DNA of 58,157 bases from a virus. Its lineage: Duplodnaviria; Caudoviricetes. This document shows positions 1,699-12,375 of this stretch, piece by piece; position 1 is the stretch's first letter, and each line of letters starts with the position of its first letter. Below the pieces are notes generated by a model. The model worked only from the letters and a program-made list of their open reading frames with translations, was not told where the DNA came from and searched no databases. The position numbers were made by a program, and so were the translations under genes. Location of the stretch: positions 1 to 58,157 of IMG/VR virus record IMGVR_UViG_3300023220_000531; one strand, 5' to 3'.

Positions 1699-2742
1699 AT
1701 GACAAATTTTGATGATCGGTTCGCTGGCGGTGGCGGGGCATTTTTGGGAGTTCCATATCCCAGGAAGTCCAAGACCTTGAGTAGCGGTTATAACAACACA
1801 TTTACAACTGGTGGAGGAACAATATTTCCCTTCATAGTTGGCCGAGACATTCCTGTTCCTGACACAGTGTACGCTGGTATTATTGCACCGGTCGCAAATT
1901 TAGGGGCGACTTCTGTTATAGCAAGGGGACAGCGGCCTGATGGTACATCCATATGGAGTAAAGCTTACGGCACAGCCCTTAGCGGTCGAGCTACAGGTTC
2001 TTATTACATGGATGAAGCCAGTGGTAAGCTTTATATGCTCCAGGCTGATACCGGGACCACAAATCTTAAATTTATTGATGAGATTGATATGCTACTTGGG
2101 ACAGTAGTGACAAAAGTATCACTTGTTACCGGTATCACAAGTATCAATGCTGACCACAGTTACCATTTGCGGCCAGTTACCCCAGGTTCACCGGGAACTT
2201 CAGACTGGCGGATCATACACGGTTTTGGCTCTGGACAGACTGCCGCAATGTCAGTAATTACCACAAGCAACACAATCACGACTGACAAGCAAGATTTGAA
2301 AGTAGATTCTGGTGGTACTAATCAGAGTTTTGGATTCAAGCCTCAATACATGACCGCCGATAACAAAATTATTATTGGTGATTGGTTACACGCTGACGCT
2401 GGTGCTGGTTTAGAAACCGCGGGAACAAATATTTTCTTTAATATTCAGCGAGGCCCTATGCAAATTGGTGTAATAATGCCATTTGATGGAAACATGCCTT
2501 ATCCTTTTGCGAGTTCAAGCCTTATATCAACTACCCCTATAGATATGGCACCTAATGCACTTAAAACTGCATGGATATCATCTGAGAGTTCAGTAATATT
2601 TATTGCGGATAGTGCGACGACTGCTACGGGTAGCGCTATTCAGGTGTTCGGTAAACGAGTTTTTGACAAAGTTGATTTCGATAGATGGCTGAAAGGTATC
2701 TGTGATGCGCTTAACATGCCAACAGGGGAGGCGTTTTTCTAA
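1699..2742 (+). CDS. Putative receptor-binding / tail fibre protein
   Basis: G/T/S-rich 347 aa beginning MTNFDDRFAGGGG; coupled to the fibre base gene. Confidence 0.55.
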   Translation: MTNFDDRFAGGGGAFLGVPYPRKSKTLSSGYNNTFTTGGGTIFPFIVGRDIPVPDTVYAGIIAPVANLGATSVIARGQRPDGTSIWSKAYGTALSGRATGSYYMDEASGKLYMLQADTGTTNLKFIDEIDMLLGTVVTKVSLVTGITSINADHSYHLRPVTPGSPGTSDWRIIHGFGSGQTAAMSVITTSNTITTDKQDLKVDSGGTNQSFGFKPQYMTADNKIIIGDWLHADAGAGLETAGTNIFFNIQRGPMQIGVIMPFDGNMPYPFASSSLISTTPIDMAPNALKTAWISSESSVIFIADSATTATGSAIQVFGKRVFDKVDFDRWLKGICDALNMPTGEAFF

Positions 2743-3188
2743 TGAGCAGAATAGTTTATTTCCAACATGGTAATCCTGATTATAAAGGTGAACAGGAATT
2801 TTTCGGGCCGCCCACATGGGTTGAAAAAGTAGAAAATCCTCCTGGAACTGTGATTCAGGAAGCCGGTTTTTATTGTGACTATAGTGGATCTTCTGATGAA
2901 TCAGTTTTCCCTATACACACACCTTTAGTTGTTGTTAAAGATCGAAGAACCCGTGTAACTGGCCGAGAATTAATTGCTTTGTTTGATTCCCGTGACGAAG
3001 CTATATGGGACAAGGTTGAAGGTTCTGCAGCTACAGAGGCCAAGGATTTCAGAGAGGCCGTTGCCAGAAACTTAGATCGTCGAGTAAGTTTAACAGCCAC
3101 TTTTATCACCGATGCTTTTGCCCTAATGGTTCCATCCATTTGCACTCAAGACGATATTGATTTTGTTTCTCTCGGTATTGAATTGTGA
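2742..3188 (+). CDS. Hypothetical protein, possible fibre assembly chaperone
   Basis: TAATG coupling; position after the fibre gene. Confidence 0.5.
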   Translation: MSRIVYFQHGNPDYKGEQEFFGPPTWVEKVENPPGTVIQEAGFYCDYSGSSDESVFPIHTPLVVVKDRRTRVTGRELIALFDSRDEAIWDKVEGSAATEAKDFREAVARNLDRRVSLTATFITDAFALMVPSICTQDDIDFVSLGIEL

Positions 3189-3973
3189 GACTTTTAATAT
3201 TATTGATTGCGTTGCTACCGATATCATCCTTTGGTGAATATTTCGCTAATCAATCCTATGGACCAGGGCCACAACACAAATATGACCTCGAGACGACCGA
3301 TAGCGATATTTTGCTTGTATTGGTTCACGGTGGCGGCTGGGTTCAAGGTGATAAACGAGCGGCTAATTTCGATAATGGTGAAGCAATAAAATATGTTGCT
3401 AAACGGTATGGAATCAATATAGCTTCAGTGAATTATACTCTGGCAAAGCCCGGTACACCGACCGCGCCAATCAATAAGGACGGACCCAAGCCACGGCCTA
3501 CCCATAATGTTTATATTGCTGTTACAAAGATCAAGCAACGCACAGGCGCATCGAGGGTTGTTTTACTGGGTACGTCAGCAGGCGCGAACATAGCGGCTCT
3601 CACGTATGCCTATTACAAAGATAAAATCGATGGGTTTATTGGTTTTTATGGTGTCTACGACTTGAAACGAAGCAACGACTTTAATTCAACAGTACAGGGG
3701 ATGGTCGACACTTACACCGGTGGCAGCAATCAGAAAAAGCTTACGGCATCCCCGGTTAATATCCGATTTCCAACAAAGAAATATTTATTATTCCATGGCA
3801 ATGAAGACACTGTAGTTGAATCGATACAGTCAGCACTGATGGTCGATAAAAAGCCTGGTGCTGAGTTTCATCTAATCGAAGGCAAGAATCACGGATTTAA
3901 AGTTTTCGGCGAGAAGAACGACCCAGCGCCATGGGTAGAGCGTTTAATCCGGTTCGTTTATACAGGTGAGTGA
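3185..3973 (+). CDS. Exported alpha/beta-hydrolase (HSL-family esterase/lipase)
   Basis: Signal peptide; HGGGW oxyanion motif, GTSAG nucleophile elbow, HGNEDTVV Asp, KNHGF His. Confidence 0.9.
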   Translation: MRLLILLIALLPISSFGEYFANQSYGPGPQHKYDLETTDSDILLVLVHGGGWVQGDKRAANFDNGEAIKYVAKRYGINIASVNYTLAKPGTPTAPINKDGPKPRPTHNVYIAVTKIKQRTGASRVVLLGTSAGANIAALTYAYYKDKIDGFIGFYGVYDLKRSNDFNSTVQGMVDTYTGGSNQKKLTASPVNIRFPTKKYLLFHGNEDTVVESIQSALMVDKKPGAEFHLIEGKNHGFKVFGEKNDPAPWVERLIRFVYTGE

Positions 3974-4250
3974 TATGGATAAAAAATGGTTAGTAATTTA
4001 TATGTCTTTGATTATTTCCGGTTGTGGCACTACAGGACTTGTCGATAATGATACCGAATATGTCATGGTGTCTGTCGGTTGCGCTGGTGGTTTGTCAGCT
4101 CTTTTCACTGGTGAGGTTTGCTACTGTAAAGCGACCGATTCAGTTGAAGGAAAGGAAAATGATATTGATTGGAAAATTGATTTCAACGGAAAGGACGATT
4201 GCAAAGTTATCGGTAGGTCTGAAGGTTCTTTGAACACTGAAGGTAACTAA
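3966..4250 (+). CDS. Cys-rich lipoprotein
   Basis: MDKKWLVIYMSLIISGC lipobox (ATG 3975 likely); four further Cys. Confidence 0.7.
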   Translation: MSDMDKKWLVIYMSLIISGCGTTGLVDNDTEYVMVSVGCAGGLSALFTGEVCYCKATDSVEGKENDIDWKIDFNGKDDCKVIGRSEGSLNTEGN

Positions 4251-4693
4251 TGGATTTAACAGAGCGATATTCAAGAGCTTCGAATCATCTGCTTTATATA
4301 AAAGTTGGCGGCAGTTATCAATTAGTCGCTGATTACTTCTTTCAAACATCCATTCTCCCCGGCAAAGACATCATCACAGAGCGCTTACACTTGCTGACTG
4401 ATGGCCGCATGTTCATATTGCGCGGTTATTGTTGGGATGGCACCAGTGGCCCCGTAATCGACCGTAAGACTAATATGCGAGCTGGCTGTGGCCATGATGG
4501 TCTTTATCAACTGTCTAGGATGAATAAAATTCCTTTTGAATGGTGGCCTCGGTTAGATTTAGAGTTTGCAAAAGTTCTCGATGAAGACGGAGCGTGGTCT
4601 ATAACTATATGGACAGACCTAAAAGGATTGTCACTTGCCAAAGGTAAAGCAGCGCATCCCAATAGTAGGAAAAAGAGGTACGTGGCGCCATGA
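4250..4693 (+). CDS. DUF1353-like protein
   Basis: GYCWDGTSGP...AGCGHDGLYQ motif pattern; lysis-region context. Confidence 0.65.
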   Translation: MDLTERYSRASNHLLYIKVGGSYQLVADYFFQTSILPGKDIITERLHLLTDGRMFILRGYCWDGTSGPVIDRKTNMRAGCGHDGLYQLSRMNKIPFEWWPRLDLEFAKVLDEDGAWSITIWTDLKGLSLAKGKAAHPNSRKKRYVAP

Positions 4694-5028
4694 AAAAATT
4701 ACTAACAAAGTACTGGCCGGTAACCGTTTTCGTTTTGGGCGGAATTATCTCAGCTATAGCTTACGGTGCCGAAGCGGTACACGATCACGCGAAAGCCGAG
4801 AACGCCAAACAAACAGAAAACACAAAGCAGGTCGCGCAGTCAGCTGCCGCCAGCATGAAGGCAATAGCCCTTCTGATACAGGAACAGCGCATTGCTGAAA
4901 TGAGCGATCGAAAGAACGAGATAGAATCGAAAGTCACCCAGACCGAACCAGAACGACTCCGAGTTCTCCAGATAAAAAAGAGTCTCGAGGCTGCGCGGTT
5001 GTCCGTAAAAACAATAGGATCGATGTAG
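4690..5028 (+). CDS. Membrane-anchored coiled-coil protein (lysis accessory, i-spanin- or holin-like)
   Basis: One N-terminal TM segment followed by a helical heptad region; directly upstream of the endolysin. Confidence 0.5.
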   Translation: MKKLLTKYWPVTVFVLGGIISAIAYGAEAVHDHAKAENAKQTENTKQVAQSAAASMKAIALLIQEQRIAEMSDRKNEIESKVTQTEPERLRVLQIKKSLEAARLSVKTIGSM

Positions 5029-5031
5029 ATA

Positions 5032-5520
5032 ATGGCTAAATTCGGTAAAACATCACTGCAAAGACAGGAAGGGCTCTGTATCGAACTAAAAGAAGCCTCT
5101 AACCAGGTGATTCAAGTAATCGATCATTCCATTATCTGTAGTATTCGGAGCAAAGAGGATCAAAACAAGGCCTTTAATAGCTCACCACAGCGCTCTCACA
5201 TCAAATGGCCAATGTCTAAGCACAATGTAACCTCTGAACGAACTAAGGCTGACGCCATCGACGTGTGGCCCTGGATACCAGGCTTTGGCGCCATCAGTGG
5301 CAGCAAAGAACAGATAGCGGACATAATGCTCAAGCAAAATAAAAGCAGGGTTCAGGTATTAGCATTCGTTTATAAATCGTTCGCCAGGCTATCCGGTTAT
5401 TATCAAATGGCAGGTTATGATTTAGGCTTCGATACTATCTGGGGCGGTGACTGGGACAATGACGGAAACCTTTTAGACCAAAACTTTCATGACCTCCCAC
5501 ACATAGAAATCGTTCGATAG
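5032..5520 (+). CDS. Endolysin, peptidase M15 (L-Ala-D-Glu peptidase type)
   Basis: R..E.Q, SKH....AID, WGGDW and DLPHIE zinc-peptidase motifs. Confidence 0.9.
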   Translation: MAKFGKTSLQRQEGLCIELKEASNQVIQVIDHSIICSIRSKEDQNKAFNSSPQRSHIKWPMSKHNVTSERTKADAIDVWPWIPGFGAISGSKEQIADIMLKQNKSRVQVLAFVYKSFARLSGYYQMAGYDLGFDTIWGGDWDNDGNLLDQNFHDLPHIEIVR

Positions 5521-5548
5521 TAGATTAATCCCTCTTTTTGGTTATAAT
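5521..5548 (+). promoter_or_regulatory. Putative sigma70 promoter for the peptide / membrane protein / holin unit
   Basis: TAGATT-N16-TATAAT immediately after the endolysin stop. Confidence 0.5.
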
Positions 5549-5580
5549 CACTTCATTGATTAAAACTTATAGGTATCAGT

Positions 5581-5694
5581 ATGACGCCCGAAATTGAAAC
5601 CAAACCAGATTCAATTCCTAAAGGTGGTGGTGGAGGTACCTCTGAACCGCGAGATAGAGATCGAGAAGATGATGATTTAGGTGAAGTCGAGTAA
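5581..5694 (+). CDS. 37-aa peptide MTPEIETKPDSIPKGGGGGTSEPRDRDREDDDLGEVE (not in ORF track)
   Basis: AGGT RBS and ATG; its TAA overlaps the next ATG (TAATG coupling). Confidence 0.7.
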   Translation: MTPEIETKPDSIPKGGGGGTSEPRDRDREDDDLGEVE

Positions 5695-6242
5695 TGGAAT
5701 ATTCATTCATTTTATTTGCGATCATCGCTGGTGTTGTTGCAAACCTAAGCACCTCTGATGAGAAAGTAAGACTTTGTATCATGTATGCTCAGGTATTATT
5801 ATTCGCTGGTCTTTTTGCCCACGGTACGACGGCCTGGATAAATCATAGAGATTCCATGTTACCTGCAAGCGATTGGTTGACTCGGTTTCTGGATTTTTAT
5901 CAATACCTGGTACCCGCAGCATTGAACCTCTATGCAATAACAAGGTTTCAGAAGTCAATGAACCGGGCTTATAGGCTTATTTCTATTCCATTATCGTTCA
6001 CTATTTTATACAACATCGGCGTTCCTTTAGAGTTTAAATTATTCGGGACAACCAATCTTTGGTCCGCTACTTTCATAATCCCCGCACTTTGTGCTACTGA
6101 GGTGATCTTATTACTGGTAGGTTCAGATGTCATTCGAGATAAATTTGGCGGTATTGATCGTGATGGTCATACTGTTCGAAGTACGCTTAGTCGACCTGCT
6201 AGAAACCGCAGTTTACATAGGGGTGATACACACCGTAATTAA
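5694..6242 (+). CDS. Polytopic membrane protein (about 5 TM) with a basic C-terminal tail
   Basis: Five hydrophobic segments; translationally coupled to the peptide ORF. Confidence 0.75.
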   Translation: MEYSFILFAIIAGVVANLSTSDEKVRLCIMYAQVLLFAGLFAHGTTAWINHRDSMLPASDWLTRFLDFYQYLVPAALNLYAITRFQKSMNRAYRLISIPLSFTILYNIGVPLEFKLFGTTNLWSATFIIPALCATEVILLLVGSDVIRDKFGGIDRDGHTVRSTLSRPARNRSLHRGDTHRN

Positions 6243-6297
6243 GGTGGTTGTATCGGGTATCAAAGCATTGGCCAAAGAAGCGGAGGACGACGAATAA
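6127..6297 (+). CDS. 56-aa two-TM protein overlapping the 3' end of the 5-TM gene in another frame (not in ORF track)
   Basis: GGTAGG RBS; MSFEINLAVLIVMVILFEVRLVDLLETAVYIGVIHTVIKVVVSGIKALAKEAEDDE. Confidence 0.5.
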   Translation: MSFEINLAVLIVMVILFEVRLVDLLETAVYIGVIHTVIKVVVSGIKALAKEAEDDE

Positions 6298-6335
6298 TTA
6301 TTCATGGTGCGCCTGGATAATTCGGCGTTAAATGG

Positions 6336-6653
6336 ATGTTATTAACTCAATTCATCAGTTCTTATTCTGTATACATCGATGCTGGTCTCATTGGGACATT
6401 CGGTGGCCTAGCTAATTATTTCTACTACATCGATAAACAACATTTAAAATTTAAATTCAGACATCTTTTTACCACATCAATATTGGCATTCTTCATGGGA
6501 ATTGTCGGTTATGTCTTCCTTCCCACTGGACCCAATAAGCTGGGTTACCTGATGCTGGTAGGGTTTTTCTGCTATCCAATAATTGATTTTCTTTCTAAGA
6601 ATTTGGATAGGGTATTAAAGGCGATAATTAAGCGAGGGACTTTTGGCGACTGA
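6336..6653 (+). CDS. Holin (LydA-like, 3 TM)
   Basis: GTFGGLANY motif, three TM segments, basic C-terminus. Confidence 0.75.
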   Translation: MLLTQFISSYSVYIDAGLIGTFGGLANYFYYIDKQHLKFKFRHLFTTSILAFFMGIVGYVFLPTGPNKLGYLMLVGFFCYPIIDFLSKNLDRVLKAIIKRGTFGD

Positions 6654-6803
6654 TGGAACTTTGCACCAAAATTCACCATTAACGACAATCACATCACATT
6701 TGATTCCAACCAGAACAGTCCTTTGAATATGCCTAACCGTCTCGGTGCTAAAGCTGATTAAGATCAAGAAAATTACTATTTTTATTAGTGTGGTTTTAGC
6801 CAT
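6615..6803 (-). CDS. Small exported or membrane protein, last gene of the leftward arm
   Basis: N-terminal hydrophobic segment; overlaps the HNH stop and the holin 3' end. Confidence 0.4.
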   Translation of the reverse strand: MAKTTLIKIVIFLILISFSTETVRHIQRTVLVGIKCDVIVVNGEFWCKVPSVAKSPSLNYRL

Positions 6804-7311
6804 TTAAACCAGGTCCGTTAGCCCTATGCCATGCACCGTGGCAACTGCGGCACAACCATCTTACCGACAGAAGCAATGAATAGTCGTCGTGATGGCCGTG
6901 CAATGTGTCTGTATTGTCGCATTTCGAACAATTATCCGGCCTTGTCAACCAACCACATTTTATTGCGTTGTTAACTGCGGTTTTTGCTTTAGTCTTGATT
7001 GGGTTTTTTGCGGTATATTTGGCTTTACTACGCCTGTATTCATCAGTCTTTTGATAAGCTGCCTGATAGTTTTTGTATTTGTCGCTTTTTTGATGTTTGG
7101 ACACAGTAAGATTTCTGGCTTCGCTCTTTAGATAAGCTGCTCTGACGCTCTTACCTTTAGCACTGTTCACGTATTCAGTCTCAAACTTCTTTCTACACGT
7201 CTTGCATGCATACTGAAGACCGTCTTTTGATTTGGCTCGCCTACTAAATTCAGATAGTGGAGTGGGATTTTTACAAGTGGTGCATATTTTAGTAGAATCA
7301 ATATCAGACAT
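6796..7311 (-). CDS. Zn-finger / HNH endonuclease (paralog of 13206..13703)
   Basis: CTTC...GLQYACKTC N-terminus; CSKC...HGHHDDYS...VRWLCRSCHGAWH C-terminus. Confidence 0.85.
   Translation of the reverse strand: MSDIDSTKICTTCKNPTPLSEFSRRAKSKDGLQYACKTCRKKFETEYVNSAKGKSVRAAYLKSEARNLTVSKHQKSDKYKNYQAAYQKTDEYRRSKAKYTAKNPIKTKAKTAVNNAIKCGWLTRPDNCSKCDNTDTLHGHHDDYSLLLSVRWLCRSCHGAWHRANGPGLNG
7270..7298 (+). promoter_or_regulatory. Antisense sigma70 promoter inside the HNH gene start
   Basis: TTTACA-N17-TAGAAT; same position in the paralog. Confidence 0.65.
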
Positions 7312-7375
7312 TTTGACCTCTGCTATAGGTTGAAATGATTAGAATAGAGCCAGTTGACGCTGGCTTTGTTCGTTT
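7305..7375 (+). ncRNA. Candidate antisense sRNA covering the HNH start codon and RBS
   Basis: Hairpins UUUUGACCU/AGGUUGAAA and GAAUAGAGCCAG/CUGGCUUUGUUC pair fully (with G-U) only on the + strand; covary with the paralog. Confidence 0.6.
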
Positions 7376-7384
7376 ATTATAGCA
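7376..7384 (-). promoter_or_regulatory. Extended -10 promoter of the HNH gene
   Basis: TGCTATAAT on the minus strand about 65 nt upstream of the ATG; paralog has TGTTATAAT. Confidence 0.65.
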
Positions 7385-7446
7385 TTTTTATTAAAACTGT
7401 GGTCTCAGATAATTCAAACATACATTTAGCGCCGCTCTTTATTTTT

Positions 7447-7566
7447 CTATAAGTCTGAATACTTGTCGGGGAACTCATAGAAAAACATTATCTGGTTTAG
7501 GCGTAGATACCACTTACCACCCCTTTTAAGGTGCCGACTTAACGACTGACGCGCCCCGATGTTCAT
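7447..7566 (-). CDS. Possible 39-aa ORF (MNIGARQSLSRHLKRGGKWYLRLNQIMFFYEFPDKYSDL)
   Basis: Open frame filling the gap in the operon direction; weak RBS. Confidence 0.35.
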   Translation of the reverse strand: MNIGARQSLSRHLKRGGKWYLRLNQIMFFYEFPDKYSDL

Positions 7567-7573
7567 TTAAATA

Positions 7574-7840
7574 TTACCACCAAAAAGGGAGTTCAATTTC
7601 TTCTTTCTCACAATACTCAATAATAGCTTCTTTCTCTGTAGCGCCGAATCCCATTGCATCAAACCCGTATTTGTCTCCAAAGTCGCCAGGGCTTTCCATT
7701 TCATCCCAACAAGTCCAAGGATGATCACCGCAACCAGGCGAATTCCATGTGTAAATTTTATTTACTTTTTTCCAATCGCCAAGAGTCGCTTTTTGCTGAC
7801 CAATTCCCTCGATCGATAATTGTTCATTGCTCATTTTCAA
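7574..7840 (-). CDS. Hypothetical protein
   Basis: GGAG RBS; operon orientation. Confidence 0.6.
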   Translation of the reverse strand: MKMSNEQLSIEGIGQQKATLGDWKKVNKIYTWNSPGCGDHPWTCWDEMESPGDFGDKYGFDAMGFGATEKEAIIEYCEKEEIELPFWW

Positions 7841-7905
7841 ACTCCATTACATCTTCGTAAAGATAAGTCCAGATTGTTGCCACGGTTTTATTATTAAGTT
7901 AAGTG

Positions 7906-8166
7906 TTAGAATTCCATCATGGTAGAAAGCCTACATTCGTTAGACTCTCTTTCTTCTTCTGCTTTAGGTAACCCAAGTTCATCGCACAGATCCATCAATG
8001 CACAGTCCCATGCATCCCTGAATGATATGCCTTCATCCAATAACTGCACTAAAATGCGGCTCTGTCTCGATGGCCCCAGAGCAGACAACATGCTTTTAGT
8101 GATACGAATTTCATCATCAGTAAGAATTCTTTTGGCCTTTATATAACTATCTTTCGTAATATTCAT
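7906..8166 (-). CDS. Hypothetical protein
   Basis: ATGA coupling within the leftward operon. Confidence 0.6.
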   Translation of the reverse strand: MNITKDSYIKAKRILTDDEIRITKSMLSALGPSRQSRILVQLLDEGISFRDAWDCALMDLCDELGLPKAEEERESNECRLSTMMEF

Positions 8167-10998: not shown

Positions 10999-11168
10999 TA
11001 TTTTTTACCTGCTACAAAATCAATCTGTTTATGTTTGTTGAATTCATTTAGCCAAGCCGACTTCCATGGTTGCTTTTTGAACGGGCAATGGCTGACTGAT
11101 GTCGATAATCGAGCATGAGCCCAACAATCGGTGAAAGGATTGCGTCTGGACTTTTTATCCTTTGACAT
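10998..11168 (-). CDS. Rmf/CrpP-fold small protein (56 aa)
   Basis: MSKDKKSRRNPFTDCWAHARLSTSVSHCPFKKQPWKSAWLNEF matches the Rmf pattern (basic N-terminus, CP[YF]....R..WL.G[WF]). Confidence 0.55.
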   Translation of the reverse strand: MSKDKKSRRNPFTDCWAHARLSTSVSHCPFKKQPWKSAWLNEFNKHKQIDFVAGKK

Positions 11169-12375
11169 TGAGAACCTGCCGCAACCTATAAACAATTTCA
11201 ACAAGGTCATCTTGAGCCGCCATAACAGCGCCGATATCTTTGTAAGCTGCTGGGCTTTCATCGAGGACGTCTTTGTCTAGCCTTGCTTCAATTCCTTCCA
11301 TAGCAGCTGCATGCTGTTCGAGAGTAATCTCCCTGTTTGCTTGGGTTCGCGACATTACACGACCTGCACCATGAGAACAGCTACAGAAAGAGTCTTTGTT
11401 GCCTAACCCTCGAACGATGAACGACCCTGTACCCATTGAGCCAGGTATAATCCCTAAATCGCCTGTGCGAGCCCTAACGGCCCCTTTACGAGTGATCCAC
11501 ACGTTTGAACCGTAATGATTTTCGCGGCTGATGTAGTTGTGATGGCAGTTAACCGCTTGGTCGGTGACTGAGAACTCTGGCAAGGATTTATGCAGTACAC
11601 TTAAAATTGCCTCCATCATTGCCTTTCTATTTTCCAAAGCATAATCCTGCGCCCACCCAACTGCATTAACGTAATCGTCAAATAATTCTGTGTGCTCCAC
11701 CAGGTAAGACAGGTCTTTATCCGCGAGATACTTATCAATGTGGTATCGTTCCATTTCTTCCTTAGCTTTCTGGATGAAATAAGTACCGATTCTATTGCCG
11801 ACACCTCTTGATCCAGAATGCAGCATAATCCAAACAGCGTCATTTTCATCAAGGCATAATTCGATAAAATGATTACCGGTTCCAAGCGTTCCCATGTGAG
11901 ACCAGTTATTAAATGATTTGGCCTTTGGATGCTTTGTCAAAATATCGCAGTAACGGTAATACAGCGCATCCCATCGCTTTATATGAGGGTTATTGTCTCC
12001 CCATCTGCCGCGATCATTTTTGCCACCGTTATCAGTTCTGCCATGGGGAACGGCTTGTTCAATCTGACATCTTATTTCGTGAAGATTATCTGGCAACTGA
12101 TCGGCTCTCAACGTGGTCTGGTAGGCCATCATTCCACAACCTATATCGACACCTACAGCAGCTGGGACAATAGCTCCCTTGGTAGCTATCACTGATCCGA
12201 TAGTCGCACCCATACCCCAGTGCACATCAGGCATAGCGGCAACGTGTTTGTGAATAAATGGAAGGGATGCGACATTTTCTAGCTGTTCCTCTGCGCGCAC
12301 ATCCAGCAATACACCGTTAGTCCAATGCTTAATTGGCACGTTTTTAGTTTCTTTGTAAATATATCCGCCCATCAC
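11155..12375 (-). CDS. rtcB: RNA ligase RtcB (2',3'-cyclic or 3'-phosphate to 5'-OH)
   Basis: MPDVH, VGVDIGCG, GTGNHF, HSGSRG, HHNY, RKGA, PGSMG, SHGAGR and DESPAAYK motifs; strongly E. coli RtcB-like. Confidence 0.97.
   Translation of the reverse strand: MMGGYIYKETKNVPIKHWTNGVLLDVRAEEQLENVASLPFIHKHVAAMPDVHWGMGATIGSVIATKGAIVPAAVGVDIGCGMMAYQTTLRADQLPDNLHEIRCQIEQAVPHGRTDNGGKNDRGRWGDNNPHIKRWDALYYRYCDILTKHPKAKSFNNWSHMGTLGTGNHFIELCLDENDAVWIMLHSGSRGVGNRIGTYFIQKAKEEMERYHIDKYLADKDLSYLVEHTELFDDYVNAVGWAQDYALENRKAMMEAILSVLHKSLPEFSVTDQAVNCHHNYISRENHYGSNVWITRKGAVRARTGDLGIIPGSMGTGSFIVRGLGNKDSFCSCSHGAGRVMSRTQANREITLEQHAAAMEGIEARLDKDVLDESPAAYKDIGAVMAAQDDLVEIVYRLRQVLNVKG

Follow-up and report, generated by a model that had tools for sequence, protein, structure and literature searches.

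The virus record IMGVR_UViG_3300023220_000531, analysed here over its whole length of 58,157 bp and called the window, carries at the distal end of its lysis genes a compact unit of three overlapping genes. A micro-open reading frame (micro-ORF) encodes a 37-residue peptide (pep37), the next gene encodes an inner-membrane protein with five transmembrane (TM) helices (TM182), and a third ORF (orf56), for a small TM protein, is overprinted in the +1 frame on the DNA for the TM182 tail. The unit is real and is kept in three lineages of one myovirus group, where it is always located distally in the lysis gene run, beside whichever endolysin and holin type the phage carries. We tentatively consider it an accessory membrane module that belongs to the lysis cluster, has its own promoter, and acts in the manner of an antiholin or co-holin. 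With its direct terminal repeats, the window, which comes from a metagenome, represents a complete virus record, and the phage is a myovirus, because the genome encodes a tail sheath, a portal, and a major head protein. A megablast search with positions 4200-7400 and a tblastn search with TM182 found no near match among 50,697 phage records. The initial annotation, made from the letters of the sequence, proposed a peptide gene, a 5-TM gene, an overlapping ORF, and a holin gene at this locus, and all of these ORFs are present at the positions given for them (Table 1).

The closest relative of the unit is found in a second complete genome of 55,965 bp (G006, loci L002-L004; hereafter L002), in which the counterpart of TM182 is 62% identical. 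The block has the same order and reading frames as in the window: a TATAAT box, a 34-residue ORF with a TAATG overlap, a 182-residue protein, a 54-residue ORF in the +1 frame, and a 105-residue holin candidate. Since L002 keeps every element with equal coupling and frame, the arrangement in the window is beyond chance. The proportions of non-synonymous and synonymous differences (pN/pS) between the two genomes reveal purifying selection on pep37, the core of TM182, orf56, and the holin candidate.

The overlap of orf56 and TM182 is 116 nt long and contains 26 differences between the window and L002, of which 9, 2, and 15 fall on codon positions 1, 2, and 3 of orf56 (chi-square p=0.0076). The pN/pS values within the overlap are 0.139/0.506 in the orf56 frame and 0.287/0.073 in the TM182 frame. 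Because the substitutions follow the orf56 frame, orf56 is the constrained gene in the overlap; of the TM182 tail, only the length and the basic character are retained, with 18 of 37 residues identical in L002. The orf56 protein is 72% identical to the product of the 54-residue ORF of L002. It is missing from a collection of 5.8 billion proteins, so no gene caller has called it, and it has no match in Pfam, PHROG, or NCBIfam, permissive thresholds included. In the frame of orf56, a TAG precedes the ATG by two codons in the window; L002 has no stop within those two codons. Neither orf56 nor its L002 counterpart contains a cysteine, and hence a lipobox, which excludes orf56 from being an o-spanin. 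AlphaFold2 predicts orf56 as a single continuous helix of residues 2-55 with a predicted local distance difference test score (pLDDT) of 90.6, whereas hydropathy indicates two hydrophobic stretches, only the second of which is common to the counterpart in the more distant relative G002. The overlapping protein with two TM segments and an acidic end that was initially proposed is therefore a real ORF with an acidic C-terminus in the window, but the number of its TM segments is uncertain. The C-terminus of the G002 counterpart is basic.

The start codon of pep37 is preceded by an AGG 7 nt before the ATG, and its stop codon overlaps the start of TM182 in the sequence TAATG. No clear Shine-Dalgarno sequence precedes the start of the 5-TM gene. 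The alignment of pep37 with the 34-residue ORF of L002 contains 18 invariant columns with the core KP-S-PKG-GG-TS-PRDR. Among the 28 aligned codons, 9 have synonymous changes only, 11 are non-synonymous, and 8 are identical; pN/pS is 0.254/0.709, and the core substitutions are distributed 6, 9, and 17 over codon positions 1, 2, and 3 (p=0.048). The peptide is hydrophilic and lacks cysteines, and its hydropathy profile contains no hydrophobic segment usable as a signal peptide or membrane anchor. The length of the micro-ORF product varies from 37 residues in the window to 34 in L002 and 22 in G002. The net charge of pep37 is acidic and that of its L002 counterpart basic, and the acidic tail is missing in both L002 and G002. 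Thus, the ORF and its TAATG coupling, both pointed out in the initial annotation, are conserved, but the acidic tail described with them is not. In both lineages for which the DNA context of a relative is available (L002 and G001/G002), a short, translationally coupled Pro/Lys(/Gly)-rich ORF is positioned upstream of the 5-TM gene, so that the check suggested in the initial annotation, whether homologs keep a short Gly/Pro-rich ORF upstream, is positive for the peptide. Searches of Pfam, PHROG, and NCBIfam with pep37, including those at permissive thresholds, gave no match.

The AlphaFold2 model of TM182, calculated from five sequences, has a pLDDT of 77 and a predicted template modelling score of 0.66. 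It contains helices of residues 4-18, 22-55, 61-86, 91-117, and 128-151, followed by a disordered basic tail of residues 153-182. The model agrees with the approximately five TM segments proposed at the outset, four of which are clearly visible in the hydropathy profile. We infer an N-out/C-in topology, because the charge distribution puts the basic loop 84-94 and the basic tail inside. The family is very small, with four relatives among 1,835,955,588 representative proteins. Three of them, P0002-P0004, occur in ENA or Logan data only and are absent from the viral contigs, and scans of metagenomes and genomes gave no record besides L002. The residues Cys28, Arg52, Asp60, Asn78, Tyr93, Pro99, Glu113, Glu136, Gly143, and Arg148 are invariant. 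Arg52 and Asp60 belong to a presumably periplasmic loop with the pattern RD..P.SD, Asn78 is part of helix 3, and Glu136 of helix 5. The core of TM182 has a pN/pS of 0.208/0.786. A fusion by frameshifting or readthrough is unlikely, given an in-frame stop a few codons 5' of the TM182 start in both the window and L002 and, in the window, the TAG ahead of orf56.

No known family or fold could be assigned to TM182. A Pfam search at E up to 10 that included three relatives gave TM182 no match, AgrB included, and TM182 matched nothing in PHROG or NCBIfam; searches of NCBIfam and Rfam yielded nothing relevant. The TM182 profile found no PDB sequence at E up to 10. Foldseek identified no match in the PDB at E <= 0.001, and its best match in BFVD (E 0.021, TM-score 0.61) was to unnamed phage proteins. 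In a VIA-align comparison with 48,161 chains, the best hits were designed helical bundles with a Z-score of 10.6, where about 13 is expected for helical bundles. The best scores in the ESM Atlas were 0.86 for TM182 and 0.81 for its G002 counterpart TM160, below the lead threshold of 0.9.

The promoter-like element upstream of pep37 consists of a -35 hexamer TAGATT, a 16-nt spacer, and a perfect -10 hexamer TATAAT. The equivalent position in L002 reads TGGAAT-N16-TATAAT, and in G002 a TATAAT is located 31 nt 5' of the micro-ORF. In each of the three lineages (window, L002, and G001/G002), a perfect TATAAT thus precedes the micro-ORF by 31-41 nt, and the -35 hexamer matches the consensus at three of six positions. 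The TATAAT hexamer is under-represented in the window genome, with 15 copies on the plus and 16 on the minus strand compared to about 33 expected per strand from the base composition. The copies at 5543 (+), 7381 (-), and 13771 (-) are situated just 5' of gene starts. A separate transcription start for the unit is plausible, because the TATAAT is conserved in three lineages and under-represented in the genome. Among sequencing runs, no RNA run with the sequence was listed, and one DNA run from a sediment metagenome contains 5% of the sampled words. The promoter-like element described in the initial annotation is therefore present, with a conserved -10 box, but its -35 box is weak, and a consensus promoter scan of positions 3000-8000 did not list 5521-5548 among its 8 sites (11.5 were expected from shuffled sequences).

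The third lineage was reached through the major head protein. A search with this protein retrieved 15 loci, nine of which were on short contigs and left aside. Five records were screened with the profiles of TM182 and of the holin, and none of the five matched. The syntenic region was read in three long records, G001, G002, and G003. The capsid proteins of G001 and G002 are 68% identical to that of the window, and the two records count as one lineage because they are identical over the 1,000 nt compared at the locus. The gene run of G002 contains conserved tail genes, a DUF5675 gene, a GTA_holin_3TM gene (Pfam E 2e-19, phrog_3427 E 2.5e-35), two small genes, and the TATAAT, followed by the unit. 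The unit of G002 is formed by a 22-residue Pro/Lys-rich ORF, an ATGA overlap, a 160-residue protein (TM160) with five hydrophobic segments and a charged tail, and a 53-residue TM ORF in the +1 frame over the TM160 tail. A gene for a 97-residue protein and convergent genes are located downstream. The frame offset of the overprinted ORF is equal in the window and G002 (373 mod 3 = 433 mod 3 = 1). G003, with a capsid protein 48% identical to that of the window, has no such unit at the equivalent place, where tail-fibre genes run into the terminase.

Comparisons of the individual parts also connect G002 to the window, with a relatedness that is modest but exceeds that of the controls. Among four TM160 sequences, 32 of the 36 columns of the overlapped tail are invariant, compared to 79 of the 124 columns of the core (Fisher p=0.0037), as expected for dual coding. 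The orf56 profile aligns to the small ORF of G002 with an hhalign P of 9.9e-5 and a probability of 58%. The real score was reached by none of 2000 residue shuffles and by 13 of 2000 segment-preserving shuffles, and the two proteins have the motif LET..YIG.I in common. For the TM182 profile and TM160, the real score was reached by 2 of 2000 residue and 1 of 2000 segment-preserving shuffles, and the alignment spans helix 3 and the following basic loop. The score of the peptide profile against the 22-residue ORF was reached by 6 of 2000 shuffles. The units of the window and G002 are probably orthologous, and their shared architecture is a stronger argument for this than the part-by-part sequence likeness.

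The lysis genes around the unit differ among the lineages. The last gene of the rightward block in the window encodes a 105-residue protein that matches the LydA family PF16083 with 26.0 bits (25.5 bits in a six-frame search), under the Pfam gathering cut-off of 28.4; a precomputed annotation lists five of seven family members, the 105-residue protein included, as PF16083. The holin assignment further draws on its TM content and on its place as the last gene, following a cytoplasmic endolysin. It is 67% identical in L002, where the comparison also indicates purifying selection, and it is the only match to the tested holin families (PF16083 and PF11351) in the window genome and G006. In these two genomes, the unit is thus flanked directly by a cytoplasmic endolysin on one side and by the sole holin-family match on the other. 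In G002, it belongs to the same gene run as DUF5675 and the GTA holin, two genes 3' of the latter. The LydA-like holin candidate that was initially described downstream of the 5-TM gene is accordingly present in the window and L002, but its linkage to the unit is not conserved in G001/G002. The 97-residue protein that follows the unit in G002 (L034 12451-12744) has one TM segment and a highly charged C-terminal helix. It matches phrog_13707 (E 1.5e-6) and holin PHROGs only weakly (E 0.018-0.033), and has no relationship to the LydA-like holin. The gene begins in an overlap with both the TM160 stop and the 3' end of the overprinted ORF, so that three frames are in use within about 60 nt.

Table 1. 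Features of the unit and the adjoining lysis genes in the window.
Feature	Positions	Strand	Evidence
Rz-like i-spanin candidate; N-terminal TM segment, then charged, probably helical region	4690-5028	+	phrog_8821 E 5.8e-4, phrog_1026 E 1.8e-3, hydropathy
Endolysin, cytoplasmic (no TM or signal-anchor-release (SAR) segment), L-Ala-D-Glu-peptidase-like	5032-5520	+	phrog_465 E 7.7e-16
Promoter-like TAGATT-N16-TATAAT; -10 at 5543-5548	5521-5548	+	sequence
pep37, 37-residue hydrophilic micro-ORF	5581-5694	+	ORF list, conservation
TM182, 182-residue inner-membrane protein, five helices	5694-6242	+	ORF list, hydropathy, AlphaFold2
orf56, unannotated 56-residue membrane-protein ORF, +1 frame over TM182 tail	6127-6297	+	ORF list, substitution pattern
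LydA-like holin candidate, 105 residues, last gene of rightward block	6336-6653	+	PF16083 E 1e-5, phrog_785 E 0.0041

The rightward block of structural and lysis genes ends with this locus, directly before convergent leftward genes. The ORFs neighbouring the unit are the spanin-like gene, the endolysin, the holin candidate, and an HNH-like endonuclease. The endolysin has a weak match (E 0.009) to the L-alanyl-D-glutamate peptidase PDB 2mxz.

The unit resembles a small operon with its own conserved -10 box. The overlap of the micro-protein stop (22-37 residues) with the next start would deliver ribosomes to the five-helix protein, which is predicted to be oriented N-out/C-in, with a basic cytoplasmic tail, the periplasmic RD..P.SD loop, and an invariant Glu in helix 5. 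The overprinted small membrane protein with its LET..YIG.I core is encoded in the tail DNA in the +1 frame. Next comes a final small membrane protein with a charged C-terminus, which in the window is the LydA-like holin. If the unit belongs to lysis control as an accessory module, the 5-TM and overprinted proteins in the inner membrane may tune when the holin, or the membrane potential on which it depends, yields. The micro-ORF would chiefly govern how much 5-TM protein is translated, and its product perhaps binds to the cytoplasmic face of that protein.

Several observations weigh against an accessory role in lysis. The case for lysis derives from gene position only, and the proteins of the unit have no homology to known holin, antiholin, or releasin families in Pfam, PHROG, or NCBIfam. 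Among the lineages, the unit is found alongside holins from two unrelated families and endolysins of three unrelated types; it is therefore not a dedicated partner of the LydA-like protein, and any action in lysis must be general, on the membrane potential or on holins generally. The -10 box resembles those before the leftward, presumably early, genes (7381 and 13771, minus strand), and a box of this sigma-70 type would agree with early expression, an unusual timing for lysis genes. The selection statistics, both pN/pS and codon position, come from one genome pair, the window and L002. The kinship of TM182 and TM160 is weak, with an hhalign P of 0.02 and a probability of 2.4%; a TM182 profile search of G002 at E up to 1 returned nothing, and the score of the reverse profile, TM160 against TM182, was matched by 136 of 2000 shuffles.

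Some of the same observations would fit a membrane module outside lysis control, with a function in superinfection exclusion or another envelope process, expressed from its own host-type promoter in a variable region of envelope genes. We regard this as doubtful, yet it would account for the conserved TATAAT, like that of the presumed early leftward genes, and for the independence of the unit from both holin and endolysin type. The neighbourhood is, moreover, a mosaic of envelope-active genes that includes a secreted esterase, a lipoprotein, a class-3 lipase in L002, and PagL in G002. However, each of the three lineages has the unit within the lysis gene run or at its end, followed by a small membrane protein with a charged C-terminus. 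That protein gives the sole holin-family match in the two complete genomes, and the unit has no match to PHROG exclusion families. It is improbable that TM182, alone or together with orf56, forms the holes as the actual holin, with the LydA-like protein as an accessory or pinholin-type partner. Such a role would be in keeping with its several TM helices, its basic and highly charged C-terminal tail, and its position directly after a cytoplasmic endolysin needing a large-hole holin, as well as with the LydA match under the Pfam cut-off. Nevertheless, G002 carries a strong GTA_holin_3TM beside an endolysin-like gene in addition to the unit, the TM182-type proteins with 160-182 residues and five helices exceed the classical holin classes in size, and the sequence of the TM182 tail has no constraint of its own.

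The initial annotation went further and proposed a signal-responsive module for lysis timing or phage communication, by analogy to Agr-type signalling, in which the peptide would serve as ligand or precursor and be processed or sensed by the 5-TM protein. AgrD has an amphipathic leader, a ring-forming cysteine (or serine), and a conserved acidic tail, and its gene adjoins that of AgrB, together with AgrC and AgrA. The likeness is limited to a small peptide gene adjoining the gene of an approximately 180-residue multi-pass membrane protein; the gene order is reversed, and pep37 lacks both the amphipathic leader and the ring-forming cysteine. The pairing of peptide and membrane protein is kept in three lineages, and the most conserved hydrophilic part of TM182 is the presumed periplasmic loop (Arg52, Asp60, RD..P.SD), a possible sensing site. 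Nevertheless, the peptide has no hydrophobic segment for a signal peptide or anchor, its net charge is opposite in two close relatives, and only 22 residues remain in the third lineage. TM182 has no match to AgrB or any other Pfam family at E up to 10, no fold likeness to peptidases or receptors rises above the helical-bundle background, and the neighbouring ORFs include no kinase, regulator, or receptor gene of the AgrC/AgrA kind or other. The ligand-receptor proposal therefore finds no footing in these features, and we consider it very hard to credit. A related idea, to which we also give little credence, is that of a portable, separately promoted lysis-timing sensor gating whichever holin is present. 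In it, the 5-TM protein would read an envelope or membrane-potential cue through the RD..P.SD loop and the intramembrane Glu, with orf56 as its membrane partner and the micro-protein as a cytoplasmic modulator. If so, the unit would represent a lysis-inhibition-like control that has no relationship to T4 RI/RIII and can pass from one holin family to another.

The role of the peptide is a separate question that cuts across these readings. The micro-ORF could be a translational leader only, which couples ribosomes to a 5-TM gene lacking a Shine-Dalgarno sequence and encodes a peptide without a function of its own. The TAATG or ATGA overlap in all three lineages, the absence of a clear Shine-Dalgarno sequence before the 5-TM start, and the variable length (37, 34, and 22 residues) and charge of the product are consistent with this. 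The proposal is unlikely, however, because the 18 invariant columns, the 9 codons with synonymous-only changes, and the pN/pS value point to selection on the peptide's amino-acid sequence, and its Pro/Lys-rich composition is kept even in G002.

Among known systems, the accessory module proposed here would work most like P2 LysA or the accessory set of P1, while being a member of neither. A P2 study describes LysA as an antiholin encoded by a separate gene, with four predicted TM domains, that delays lysis (PMC3091744), and the P2 record annotates it as 'nonessential; affects timing of lysis'. Like LysA, TM182 is a multi-pass, non-enzymatic inner-membrane protein with its own gene in a myovirus lysis cluster. 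However, the two have no sequence kinship (hhalign against the TM182 profile P=0.28, probability 0.2%), and TM182 has five helices, a long basic tail, a coupled micro-ORF upstream, and an overprinted gene. P1 has several cooperating holin-like proteins, with lydD overlapping lydE and one holin-like gene having its own promoter (PMC9025707). Its set of LydA holin, LydB antiholin, LydC, and LydD/lydE resembles the window in combining a LydA-family holin candidate with further small membrane proteins and overlapping genes. TM182 and orf56, which have no PHROG or Pfam matches, share no homology with the accessory proteins of P1, and the P1 endolysin is of the SAR type, whereas that of the window is cytoplasmic.

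Two further comparisons concern parts of the unit. As in Rz/Rz1, the 3' part of a membrane-protein gene also carries a second lysis-cluster gene in the +1 frame, but the host gene of orf56 encodes a 5-TM protein and not a type II i-spanin. T4 RI/RIII are similar in that candidate regulators of holin timing comprise one membrane or periplasmic and one small cytoplasmic component. The window proteins differ in having no PHROG match, the TM182 model contains short loops only and no globular periplasmic domain, and there is no evidence of a superinfection signal in the window unit. A Mu study shows that the membrane proteins of lysis clusters continue to yield new classes (PMC9239132). Full-text literature searches, which did not extend to supplements, found no description of the TM182 family or of a unit of micro-ORF, 5-TM gene, and overprinted ORF, which says little because the family is so rare.

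Accessory membrane proteins time the burst of the host cell, yet apart from those of a few model phages hardly any are known and most lack annotation. The window provides a case in which a gene missed by gene callers has clear coding evidence and is overprinted on a 5-TM gene that is itself rare and is fed by a micro-ORF coupled to it, in a unit that persists across three lineages that swapped endolysin and holin. If the unit controls the timing of lysis, it would be a holin-independent timing module; if not, it would belong to a new class of phage envelope genes. Either way, the lysis clusters of uncultured phages hold coding capacity invisible to standard annotation.

The endolysin position is occupied by three unrelated genes, for an M15-like peptidase in the window, Amidase_2 in L002 (3440-3835), and DUF5675 in G002 (L034 10147-10623). 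The Rz-like gene is identical in only 25 of 124 columns (about 20%) between the window and L002. Turnover is much quicker in the upstream half of the lysis cluster than in the unit of peptide, 5-TM, and overprinted genes. A 94-residue ORF with a lipoprotein-type signal (LIISGC) is located at 3966-4250 (+) of the window, two genes 5' of the Rz-like gene, and is kept in L002 (2244-2519). No lipobox ORF was found inside or adjoining the Rz-like gene of the window, so the o-spanin partner is either the separated 94-residue gene or missing.

Envelope-lipid enzymes cluster just 5' of the lysis genes in this phage group. The window encodes an alpha/beta-hydrolase esterase with a signal peptide at 3185-3973 (+) (BD-FAE E 3e-14). 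In L002, a class-3 lipase (2402-3115, E 1.2e-11) replaces a 147-residue gene of the window, and G002 has a PagL-like lipid A deacylase (L034 9683-10165, E 4.7e-5). These enzymes may be outer-membrane disruptors or receptor modifiers. A search for relatives based on the esterase found six loci beyond the L002 record. In L014, the one locus examined, the esterase is the C-terminal domain of a 617-residue ORF in unrelated-looking, GC-rich sequence.

Seven records with distant LydA-like genes correspond to five distinct phages. In three of these, a multi-TM gene is located directly 5' of, and overlaps, the LydA-like gene: PhiW-14 gp220, Cygsa01_16, and, in Ralstonia phage RSP15 (L010 2116-2469), an unannotated 117-residue multi-TM ORF that overlaps the start of the LydA-like ORF006. 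The two Acinetobacter phages have no overlapping multi-TM gene upstream. PhiW-14 gp220 and Cygsa01_16 have no detectable kinship to TM182 (hhalign P 0.15 and 0.34). A scan of genome contigs with P0010, a relative of the holin, gave a match within a GGDEF-type protein of a Nitrosomonas metagenome-assembled genome, which is spurious.

The motif GGNTATAATCA is not enriched in the window genome, with 6 matches compared to 4.7 expected. The HNH-like endonuclease gene at 6796-7311 (-) (phrog_2340 E 3.4e-37) is preceded on its own strand (7311-7400) by TGCTATAAT and by a 13-bp stem-loop at 7342-7371, which together may form an early promoter with a 5' hairpin. Further into the leftward block, an RtcB-type tRNA/RNA ligase gene at 11155-12375 (-) (phrog_1075 E 3e-147) may counter a tRNA-cleaving defence of the host.

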